Below are positions 13,290 through 22,434 of a DNA stretch of 64,000 nt, piece after piece (position 1 is the stretch's first letter; every line of letters begins with the position of its first letter). Source of the DNA: an uncultured Acidobacteriota bacterium (GTDB lineage: Bacteria; Acidobacteriota; Terriglobia; UBA7540); assembly GCA_963804995.1 (NCBI GenBank), contig CAWDSK010000005.1, positions 544,001-608,000 of the forward strand, in the 5' to 3' direction. A model generated the notes under the pieces. It had not been told where the DNA came from, searched no databases, and saw only the letters and a program-made list of their open reading frames with translations. The position numbers and the translations under genes are program-made.

Positions 13290-15535
13290 ATGGTTGCAAA
13301 CCGTGAAGGTGGTTATCTGAATGTTATCCTCGTCATCCTAGTGGCGATTATTCCAGCGCCGGTGATAACCCGGGGAGCGTCAAGCCCGGGAGGCCGTCCA
13401 CAGACAGGCCCTGTGACTGCCCGGGCGGCGGATCCAGCCGCGAATGATCTGGCGCTGATCTTGCAGCGTATGAAGGTGGACTTCGCCAATCCCAACGCCA
13501 CCTATCCCCACGACGTACGCGCTTCCAGCAGCCCCAGCACGCAGGACTGGCTTCCCTCCTTGGCGGCGGACGGGCATTGGCCTGATCTCTCATACGAGAA
13601 CGGGAAGCCTCCGGCGGCGGGCGCCTATTCCAATCCTGCCACCCCGAACTTTCACTCGAATGCGCACTTAATCCGGCTGGCCCAGATGACAAGCGCATAC
13701 GCCAATTCTGGCTCCCCGGACTATCACTCGGCGAAAATGCTGGAGGGAATCGAGCACGCGCTCGCGTATTGGTATAAGAACCATACCCTCTCAGATAACT
13801 GGTGGGATAACACCGTCGGTGAGCCGCAATTGCTATCACTCACCCTGGTGCCGCTCGCGGATGTTTTGCCGCCCGACCTTCTCCGCCAGGGCTTGAGCTA
13901 CTACGTCATTCCTCAAGTTAAAGATCCCAGCTATTCCCGCGCTGCTCTCTCGTACCCACAACAGCAACTGATTCGCGGGGTGCTGACGCGCTCTGACGTT
14001 GACGTGGCCGAAGCCAGTGCAGAGATGCAGAGGATCATCCGCATCCGGACCGACGAAGGCATTCAGCGGGATTTCAGTTTCCACCAGCATGGGCCGCAAC
14101 TTTACAACGGTGGATATGGCCTCACTTTGCTGATTGATATGTGTAATTACGCTACGGTCCTGCGAGGTACCCGTTATGCCTTTGCGCATGACAAATTGTC
14201 GTTGCTGGCCGATCACCTATTGGAGGGCGACGGGCACATGATTCGAGGCAAGGCGCTTGATTACAGCGCTTTCGGCCGCACTCTGCTGCGCAGGAACGCC
14301 GGCCAATCCGCCGTGGAATTGGAAGCCGTGTGCGATCAGCTCGCCGCCCTGCTTCCTGAGCGTGCCGGCGAGTTGATTGCGCTGAAGAAGCACATCGAAG
14401 GAACCGGGGCGCCTTTTAGCTACCTGGGCAACCGGTACTTTTGGAACTCCGATTTCATGACCCACCAGCGGGAGGCGTACTACATTTCCGTCAAAATGGT
14501 GTCTTACCGCACCGTGGGCACGGAAACCATCCATGCGGAGAATATGAACGGACGCTGGCTTCCCTTCGGCGCCACCTGGATACTCCGGCGTGGCGATGAA
14601 TACAATAGTATTCTCCCCGTCCTGGATTGGGCACGCTTGCCCGGTGTGACCTCACCGCACGAGATCATGCCGCCCGTCAGAAACGTTAGCCAGCCGGAAG
14701 GCTTTGTCGGAGGGGTCTCCGACGGCACCGATGGCGCCGCCGCCATGGTCTTCACCCAAAGTGAACCCACCCCCTTGGTTTCCGTGTTCGAAATCATGAC
14801 GCAGGGACGCAAAGCGTGGTTCTTTTTCGACCGGGAGATGGTGGCGCTGGGCGCCGGCATTACGTCCGTGCGTGACGAACCCGTGGGGACAACCCTCAAC
14901 CAAACGCGGCTGAACGGGCCGGTGCTGATCGATGGCCATGCGGTCGACCCGGGCGAATCGAAGGTCTCGCAAGGGTCATGGGTGCTGCACGACGAGGTCG
15001 GCTACGCATTTCTGGGGCCAACTGCCGCCAGGGTTAAAGTGGGTCCCCAAACCGCAGTATTCGAAGTCCACCAGGACGTCGGAGGTACCCGATAACTGAA
15101 CCGGTTTTTTCGCTCTGGATTGACCATGGGGTGCGCCCACGCGACGCGCAATATGCTTACGCGGTTCTGCCCGGCATCAACGCGCAACAGGTTGCGGAAT
15201 GGCAGGCGCATCCGCCCGTGCGGGTTATAACCAACACCCCAGCGCAGCAGGCCGTCATCAACGACCAACTCGGCGTGGCGGAAATCGTGTTTTACCGGTC
15301 GGGCAGCGTAGTGCTGATGCCAGGGTTGATGGTAAAAGTCGATCACCCGTGCCTGGCGCTGTTGGTGAAACATGGAAATTCAACACGCATCGCGGTGTCG
15401 AGTCCGGGCGGGGAGTTCTTTACGGTGCATCTGACTCTCACGACCCCCAAAAAAGAGCAGAACGTGACCTTCGAATTGCCGGACGGAGATATGGCGGGAA
15501 AAAGCCAAGTGATGGAAGTTCCCGTCCGCTGGTAA
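13290..15535 (+). CDS. Polysaccharide lyase family 8 (chondroitinase AC/hyaluronate lyase-like), paralog 1, frameshift ~15050-15092
   Basis: NWW, EGIQRDFSFHQHGPQLYNGGYG, DWARLPGVT and KAWFFF motifs; the C-terminal part (15131-15535) aligns with paralog 2. Confidence 0.88.
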
Positions 15536-17989: not shown

Positions 17990-18420
17990 TACATGTGGGA
18001 CAGCCGGGGTTTCCAATTCGGTAATCAAGTCCGCATCCTCGCCGCCAGCCATCCAGACATTTAGCCTGGATTTCTCCGCACTCGACCTCAATTCGACGTG
18101 GTAGCTAGTGTGGTGTCCCGGTTAATATTTGACAAGGCTGTCCGACCCCCTCACCCCCCAGCCCCTCTCCCCCAAAGGGGCGAGGGGAGAGTTAATTCTC
18201 TTGCCCTCGCCCCTTTGGGGGAGAGGGTGGCTGGCCGAGGCGTTCTCATCAGCCGAGGCCAGACGGGTGAGGGGGTTCTACCCATTGTCAACTCTAGCAC
18301 GGGACACCACACTAGCCTCGAAGCTTTCCGCTGGCGCTCAGGTGTTTTTCGAGCGGGATGTGTCTCTCATGCCGCCGCGACCGGGTAACCAGCACGTCTT
18401 TGATGTCCTCCCCAAGCGCC
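17990..18420 (-). pseudogene. Decayed antitoxin/RelE-like TA pair split by the MITE
   Basis: Removing the MITE gives ...EDIKDVLVTRSRRHERHIPLEKHLSASGKLRG* overlapping (E)ASYHVELRSSAEKS..., a RelE-like N-terminus. Confidence 0.45.
18105..18315. mobile_element. CTAG-bounded MITE, copy 2 (211 bp)
   Basis: Perfect TIR CTAGTGTGGTGTCCCG / CGGGACACCACACTAG; internal CCCCTCACCC...GGGGAGAGGG hairpins. Confidence 0.88.
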
Positions 18421-20513: not shown

Positions 20514-20725
20514 CTAGCGTGGTGTCCCGGTTAATATTTGACAAGGCTGTCCCGACCCCCTCACCCCCCAGCCCCTCTCCCCCAAAGGGGCGAGGGGAGA
20601 GTTAATTTTCTTGCCCTCGCCCCTTTGGGGGAGAGGGTGGCTGGCCGAGGCGTTCTCATCAGCCGAGGCCAGACGGGTGAGGGGGTTCTACCCATTGTCA
20701 ACTCTAACACGGGGCACCACACTAG
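20514..20725. mobile_element. CTAG-bounded MITE, copy 3 (212 bp)
   Basis: CTAGCGTGGTGTCCCG...CGGGGCACCACACTAG, near-identical to copy 2. Confidence 0.88.
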
Positions 20726-21055
20726 CTGGATTCCTCAGCCCGTGGTTGGAAGCGTGGGGCAAGGGAACAATCATGAAGGCCTTGGGGCGTCAGAGGTAGC
20801 GCAGGGCTCGCTTTCCGGCCCCTTCGTTTACCTCGGGGCAGGCTTTGCCGCCCTTCCAGCGCGATGCGATTGTGGCGGCGCGGGCGCAGCCAAGATGTGT
20901 GGGAGAACGAGTTCCGTTAAACCTCAGGCCAACGGCCGGGAAAACGGCACCAACCATTTCGACCTTTGCGCCCTGGAGGGTCGCCTGACTAGTAATCAAT
21001 TGGCTGTACGCCCCCGACGACCTTTTCAACTTCCTTGTCGGCGAGCTGGTTCTTA

Positions 21056-21964
21056 GAGCTTATCCGTAAATAATAATCGTCTGTCGCCAGCAGATCATGG
21101 CCGCGGCTAAGGTTAGTAGGGCGACGTAGCTTTCCTCGGTCTTTTCAAAGCTCACCAACACCTTACGGTATCGGTTGAGCCAGGAATGGGTCCGCTCGAC
21201 CACCCAGCGGCGCGCCTTGTAACCGGGGACGAGGAGCTTTGCTTTCATCTCTTCTCGCCGTTGCTTGATATGCGGCCGGTAGTGGCGGTTCGTGGCCGCT
21301 TGCCGAGCGCGGGATCCCTTGTAACCCGCATCGGCGCAGAGGTGCTGGGGCTTTCTCGGTCTCGGCGCCGGTCGCGCTCTCACCACCTGGTCGAGGGTGG
21401 TGGCCAGCAGCTTCACATCATGGACGTTGGCTCCGCTGACGGCGAGCGACAGTGGGACGCCACGCCCGTCGACTAACAAACTTCGCTTGCGCCCATTTTT
21501 TTCCCCGATCCGTGGGATTCGGTCCCACACACGCCAAGGCCAGAGGGGCTTTCACCAAGGCCCCGTCGATGCTTTGCCAGTCCCAGGCAATGCCCTCCAG
21601 ATCATCGTACTCAGCCAGCCCCGACCGCCACAGCGCCAGAAAGAAACCCGCCCGCTGCCACTGTTGAAAATGCTTGTGGATCGCGCTCGCGCTGCCGAAT
21701 TCCTTGGGCAAGGCCCTCCACTGACACCCCGTGCGTAGCACATACACAATGGCCGAGAAGATCCGGCGCGCCGGCATCGGCTTCCTCCCACCCCCCGGCT
21801 TCCGTCTATACTTTCGACCTTTCGACCGCTGTCGAACGGGAATCAGCGGTTCGACTTTCACCCAAAACTCGTCGGATACTTCCCAAGATTTTATCTGCGG
21901 CATCTTGGGTCATAATCATGCATCAAATTGTAGCAGGCTTCAACTATTATTTACGGATAAGCTC
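21056..21964 (-). mobile_element. IS5-family insertion sequence, 909 bp
   Basis: Perfect 20-bp TIR GAGCTTATCCGTAAATAATA; TTA duplicated at 21053-21055 and 21965-21967. Confidence 0.95.
21060..21903 (-). CDS. IS5-family DDE transposase in two ORFs joined by a -1 frameshift
   Basis: orfA LRTGCQWRALP..SIDG; orfB LCADAGY, RWVVERTHSWL; GGGGAAAAAAA at 21506-21496 in the overlap. Confidence 0.92.
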
Positions 21965-22434
21965 TTAACCTCTGGCGCCCCTTTTTTGGGTTCGTGGTCC
22001 CTCTCAATTACCTTTTCGTTTTCTTCTGCCATAGCGATTCTCCTTTTCAAAGAATAAAGATGCCGACGAGACCGCAAGTGACAAAAAGCCCCCAACGTCC
22101 ACCGTGAAGCCACCGAGCGCCACAAACTCCGCTTGCTGCCTATTCAATCTGCGGTTAGGCGCGAGGGATATGGAGACCCCCTGGATGAACATCATCCGCC
22201 TTCCGTTGCTCTGTCCTGGTTGCACCTGAGACCCTGAGATCCTACAATTTCGTGAGCTTACTTAGCCAACTACCGCTTGGAAGACAGGCAGTCTTTCTAA
22301 CATCGACAATTTGTCACAATCTTAGCACCGGCGGCTGCGGAGTCAAGGCCAATTTTCCTCATTTGTCCGCACTAGTCGCCTTCAATGGCCTGGGGCTCAT
22401 TTTCTGACTTGTGCGCTGATTAGCGGTTTAGTCA

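Follow-up and report, generated by a model that had tools for sequence, protein, structure and literature searches.

An IS5-family element interrupts a small gene for a double-glycine-leader peptide precursor in the window, the 64,000-nucleotide stretch of DNA analyzed here. The reading that we prefer, with a probability of about 0.6, is that the gene is likely dead, that its intact product would have been exported as the unmodified hexapeptide VQPIDY by a cassette elsewhere in the source genome (contig C3), and that the precursor belongs to a family forming a diversifying peptide library. The genome examined comprises 7.55 Mb and is 92% complete.

The interrupted precursor gene

The following features were assigned in the window.

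21056..21964, minus strand: IS5-family element of 909 bp, with terminal inverted repeats at 21056-21075 and 21945-21964
21418-21903 and 21060-21530: two overlapping frames forming the IS5 transposase, matched by domain profiles
21965..21967, strand not applicable: target-site duplication, copy 1 (TTA)
21053..21055, strand not applicable: target-site duplication, copy 2 (TTA)
22319..22346, minus strand: predicted sigma-70-like promoter, TTGACT-16-TAAGAT with a TG extension (motif scan, alignment A3)
22038..22358, minus strand: upstream module conserved among precursor genes of the family, comprising the promoter and a long 5' untranslated region (blastn, alignment A3, nhmmer)
22040..22045, minus strand: AAGGAG ribosome binding site, spaced 7 nt from the ATG (sequence)
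21968..22032, minus strand: 5' portion of the precursor gene, with codons 1-21 plus two bases of codon 22 (family alignment A2, E 3.3e-4)
21010..21045, minus strand: double-glycine recognition motif from Leu-12 to Gly-1, LADKEVEKVVGG, fitting the motif in PMC6363468
20989..21009, minus strand: predicted core VQPIDY and stop codon (reconstructed ORF)

The element shows the hallmarks of the IS5 family, namely a DDE transposase, terminal inverted repeats and a short target duplication. Its two frames matched DUF4096 and DDE_Tnp_1, both transposase halves matched the IS5 model NF033580, and its 20-bp terminal repeats were identical to each other. Fifteen full-length copies were found in the genome (95.0-100% identical), all 15 flanked by a TTA/TAA duplication, indicating that excision of the element with one triplet is the correct reconstruction. 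This excision yielded a minus-strand ORF of 132 nt encoding 43 aa, exactly as an earlier note on this DNA had claimed; the good ribosome binding site named there was found as AAGGAG. The insertion had also been called recent, and it may be, judging by the perfect ends of the element and the 99.56% identity of its nearest other copy; no empty-site read was found in the public runs described below.

At present, the 5' part of the precursor runs on into the element and gives a 30-aa product without the Gly-Gly motif, whereas the sole in-frame start of the 3' part is a CTG inside the end of the element, without an evident ribosome binding site. The gene is therefore likely dead, and the window copy is likely a pseudogenised family member. 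Rescue of the 3' half by a start inside the element was considered and judged unlikely, the CTG being the only start available. The contigs of seven public runs contained no joint skipping the element; each run contained fewer than half of the query words, suggesting that the source population was probably absent from all seven, and the long pieces listed from them covered only the element and a repeat. No transcript of the window gene was seen in these runs, in which the source population was probably not represented. A 254-nt contig in an RNA library carried the start of a relative, a weak observation for which DNA is not excluded as the source. A DNA query against 28 genomes of the genus found no syntenic intact ortholog.

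The reconstructed ORF is short and neither half matched Pfam or NCBIfam, as a chance product of in silico excision would be expected to behave. However, both halves and 320 nt upstream were homologous to intact family genes. An HMM built from 22 relatives, with the window sequence left out, scored the reconstructed leader at 25.1 bits (E 2.6e-4 over 203,175 stop-to-stop frames), a paralog in the same genome was matched by tblastn (E 5.8e-4), and the DNA of an intact relative (L131) was 74% identical in a 136-nt alignment that runs through the insertion point. This homology refutes a chance origin, which we regard as highly improbable.

The earlier note had made its reading depend on intact homologs, a conserved Gly-Gly motif and a C39 peptidase in the lineage; all three were found, in support of that reading. 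Profile searches returned 184 proteins at E<=0.01 (120 listed) and 247 representatives at E<=0.001 (150 listed); the named records among the matches listed were Terriglobia, one Acidobacteriota and one Bryobacteraceae. In an alignment of 50 rows, G36 was invariant and L26, L31 and G37 were each present in at least 90%. The window leader contains Leu-12, Glu-8, Val-7, Val-4 and Gly-Gly, that is, a double glycine preceded by hydrophobic residues at -4, -7 and -12 and Glu at -8. PMC6363468 gives the recognition motif of double-glycine leaders as Leu-12, Glu-8, Leu-7, Val-4 and Gly-Gly, from which the window leader departs at -7 (Val for Leu).

The gene is flanked by an ABC-F (Uup-like) gene and a DUF4082 gene, in agreement with the stand-alone precursor described earlier. 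Its stop codon sits in a CTAG, and a pair of short dispersed repeats (20795-20983) starts just a few bases past it. A non-coding element (20514-20725) has inverted ends of 31 nt, bordered by CTAG, and contains a long palindrome; it has many genomic copies, including another near 18100-18310. Of two family-8 polysaccharide lyase genes in tandem, the first (13290-15535) lacks its C-terminal domain, which seems to be in the next frame (15131-15535), a possible frameshift.

The upstream module, export cassette and tailoring enzymes

The DNA upstream of the window gene aligned at 69% over 409 nt with locus L143 by blastn. An nhmmer model of the module matched only the window and the C3 paralog in the genome; the model was built from 8 relatives, several chosen by their likeness to the window, and is not independent for the window match. 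Two sigma-70-like sites were found against 1.0 +/- 0.9 expected, and the promoter call is thus weak alone; the -35 hexamer was present in 9 of the 13 rows of alignment A3, including the C3 paralog. Among 46 module matches in the fetched loci (redundant), 33 preceded a precursor, 3 (one gene) preceded a whole orphan hcp and 10 preceded neither, a tally that is biased because most loci were fetched for their precursors. A structured RNA upstream was rejected, with no Rfam match and an RNAalifold result of 5 pairs at -0.52 kcal/mol.

At one locus (L096:7752-9000), the family module lies ahead of an orphan hcp that is whole and belongs to an export cassette locus; a partial second module comes next, then a precursor whose core resembles Hcp, directly before the cassette. 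In another genus (L160, L163, L164), the 5' 200 nt of the module occur with no precursor behind them.

As stated earlier, no transporter lies in the window. The single C39 match of the genome is on contig C3, where an intact exporter cassette with a paralog provides the C39 peptidase expected of the lineage. All genes of the cassette are open: the paralog, a TolC-like protein, TIGR03794 (316 bits; cut-off 156), TIGR03796 (1084; cut-off 853), TIGR03797 (944; cut-off 709) and a cNMP-binding protein, which scored below the TIGR03896 cut-off. The three-gene combination associated with NHLP/Nif11 precursors (TIGR03794/03796/03797) is thus complete. The paralog heading the cassette encodes 42 aa with a core of 4 residues, IKFF. 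The peptidase domain contains Gln33, Cys39, His112 and Asp128, with the triad Cys39/His112/Asp128 intact, and shows the same spacing as Gln21, Cys27, His101 and Asp117 of LahT (PMC6363468). That the sole C39 transporter belongs to an intact cassette whose first gene is a paralog makes processing in trans likely; judged from these genes, the window precursor would probably have been exported in trans by the C3 NHLP-type cassette.

Precursors were found in 11 of the 28 other genomes of the genus, often in tandem. TIGR03796 exceeded its cut-off in 9 of these 11, with two contig-end pieces in one of the others and a fragment in the last, and it occurred in 1 of the 17 genomes without precursors; this co-occurrence is descriptive only, as the genomes are related and many are incomplete. 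A third, divergent precursor stands alone in the source genome (G000:C2:232866-232994, plus strand), with a ribosome binding site and an 11-aa core of the Asn-Pro-Gln-Pro type; the 8-residue form of this motif had no match in a literature search.

Genes for LanM, an MTS methyltransferase, a TPR-GT41 protein, a B12-radical SAM protein and SET proteins lie beside precursors in relatives. In the source genome, which is 92% complete, tblastn detected neither LanM nor GT41, and a family search detected no LanC, GT41 or YcaO, although its LanC control matched nowhere. Just upstream of the paralog, we found a 45-codon methyltransferase remnant (G000:C3:443394-443522, locus L002), 78% identical to the 514-aa MTS-domain methyltransferase encoded ahead of precursors in relatives. 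With LanC, GT41 and YcaO not found and the methyltransferase reduced to a remnant, the core would most likely have been unmodified, and the earlier description of a "signal or RiPP core" is best taken as putative. The export system may be decaying in the source genome. A type VI secretion cluster (G000:C6:339075-360469) has an MTS-type methyltransferase homolog at its edge, which is only distantly related to the precursor-linked methyltransferases.

Variable cores and their likeness to Hcp

The family comprises 281 distinct cores of 3-36 aa (median 11 aa) behind a constant, Lys/Glu-rich leader of 37 aa and a common promoter region, and it is covered by no curated model. Among 50 members, even the strongest matches to NCBIfam and Pfam were weak (E 2.9e-5 and 0.011, respectively), and those of the first member were below cut-off. 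The leader was not of the NHLP or Nif11 type: TIGR03793 matched weakly in 3 of 50 members (best E 0.052) and TIGR03798 in 12 of 50 (best E 0.0071). The best feature scores in the ESM Atlas (0.88-0.89) were to unnamed clusters and serve as leads only. The dN/dS ratio was 0.17 for the last 14 leader codons (13 pairs) and 0.53 for the core (13 pairs, some probably spurious), a value too uncertain to indicate selection on the cores. Cys was present in 48 of 256 cores, some beside LanM; an Asn-Pro-Gln-Pro motif was common to 9 of 281. A second, longer leader type ending in the same Gly-Gly motif was observed at L033, L007, L015/L117 and L030, and SET-domain proteins near it begin, by eye, with a leader-like segment.

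Many family cores resemble Hcp, the tube protein of the type VI secretion system (T6SS). The core set was first cleared of ten proteins showing repeated leaders or read-through and later of three non-family strings. In a first run, 219 cores of at least 6 aa were compared with 161 Hcp proteins; 50 cores outscored each of 20 proteome decoy sets, 42 outscored each of 40 shuffles and 40 passed both comparisons, compared with 3 cores for reversed Hcp. These 40 cores span 140 of the 166 positions of a reference Hcp. In a second run, 256 cores were compared with 37 non-redundant Hcps. At p<=0.01, 54 cores matched, against 3 with reversed Hcp and 2 among natural control peptides; at p<=0.05, the numbers were 71, 17 and 6, leaving approximately 72% of the cores without significance. 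Cores that are related, among them 45 with a Trp-Ile-type motif, do not represent independent captures in these counts. The cores show a family-level excess of Hcp matches, and, independently, the Pfam model T6SS_HCP fell, below cut-off, on the cores of three longer precursors.

No whole leader-Hcp fusion was found; a search of longer proteins, a weak test, returned two, both with mis-called starts. The genome's own Hcp, encoded in a full T6SS cluster, matched no core of at least 8 aa, and among other donors in the genome's own ORFs the best E was 0.022, nothing convincing. At L147:4259-6100, precursor genes are near-repeated in tandem, and two neighbours carry adjacent N-terminal Hcp segments; at L105, an orphan hcp lies behind a possible methyltransferase gene. 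Searches of openly accessible full texts, main articles only, returned no description of double-glycine peptides with cores made of Hcp pieces.

VQPIDY fitted best to the Hcp loop and strand that follow the R-K-x-G motif, a region to which other members also map. Its score was 21 (p=0.36; p=0.10 with Gly-Gly), and reversed Hcp scored 25. At 6 aa, the core is too short to be assigned to an Hcp segment; its origin as a piece of this loop and strand is conceivable, at somewhat less than even odds.

Possible roles and known systems

Prochlorosin precursors are hypervariable and dispersed. For the family described here, we propose that a constant promoter-plus-leader module would be duplicated, dispersing the precursors, and that its copies would capture and trim short segments of other proteins, chiefly of Hcp. 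One cassette would cleave after Gly-Gly and export all cores, which may then function extracellularly as mimics of Hcp strands in competition or recognition. Judging from the sequences, we favor this last step only tentatively, ahead of the signalling and leftover readings below. A more specific version, in which peat and soil Terriglobia export a library derived from almost the full length of Hcp to jam, decoy or report on the T6SS tubes of rivals, with VQPIDY as one such peptide until the insertion, is rather doubtful.

The peptides could instead be pheromone-like signals between cells, with receptors reading short hydrophobic or aromatic cores and the Hcp likeness being a footprint of the source of the cores. 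Cores of 6 aa or fewer make up 36 of the 281, many of them hydrophobic or aromatic; the promoter module is conserved, TPR proteins and kinases lie near some precursors, and the leader matched the ComC and VP1 pheromone models, although weakly and far below cut-off. However, neither the window gene nor the cassette has a receptor or two-component gene as a neighbour, and the cores differ even between tandem copies; we consider such signalling unlikely. We place lower still the idea that the gene was a leftover RiPP precursor of a lanthipeptide, methyltransferase or glycosyltransferase branch, functionless before the insertion because its enzymes had been lost. The enzyme genes kept beside precursors in relatives, together with the lone remnant and the negative enzyme searches in the source genome, would fit such a loss, as would the Cys/Ser/Thr-rich cores carried by the five leaders nearest to that of the window. 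VQPIDY itself has no Cys, Ser or Thr and is thus no lanthipeptide core, its stop codon follows directly in frame, and the cassette, promoter, ribosome binding site and cleavage motif are intact, all of which speaks against a leftover.

The export route is already known, and the precursor family is the new part; the Hcp likeness of its cores goes beyond the earlier note. If the cores act on type VI tubes, they would represent a new kind of secreted factor that protects against contact-dependent killing or senses it; even if they do not, the family shows how peptide cores can arise by capture of protein fragments. The window copy adds little beyond the library being dispersed and turning over.

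The double-glycine leader substrates of peptidase-containing ABC transporters (ComC/ComA, LahT; PMC6363468) share the motif of Leu-12, Glu-8, a hydrophobic residue at -7, Val-4 and Gly-Gly, and the transporter of the source genome has the same C39 Cys-His-Asp triad. The present system differs in its host, a Gram-negative acidobacterium, in a 37-aa Lys/Glu-rich leader below every curated cut-off and in cores of 3-36 aa, many matching Hcp. The NHLP/N11P cassette TIGR03794/03796/03797 has been tied to constant leaders with hypervariable cores (PMC2887384). Our family resembles it in three models over cut-off, a constant leader with a hypervariable core, several precursors per genome and LanM in some relatives, whereas its leader is short and not nitrile-hydratase- or Nif11-like, most cores lack Cys and no tailoring enzyme was found in the source genome among the classes searched. 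Compared with prochlorosins (PMC10783134), the cores here are mostly linear and many match Hcp, rather than being ProcM-cyclised lanthipeptides with Nif11 leaders; the library logic with one common machinery is the same. RaxX of Xanthomonas (10.1101/442517, PMC6637879) is tyrosine-sulfated and plant-hormone-like, and use of a non-cognate transporter has been reported. A RaxX-like sulfation at the terminal Asp-Tyr of VQPIDY is conceivable. The likeness to RaxX lies in a Gram-negative peptide, secretion by a peptidase-transporter and mimicry of a foreign peptide.
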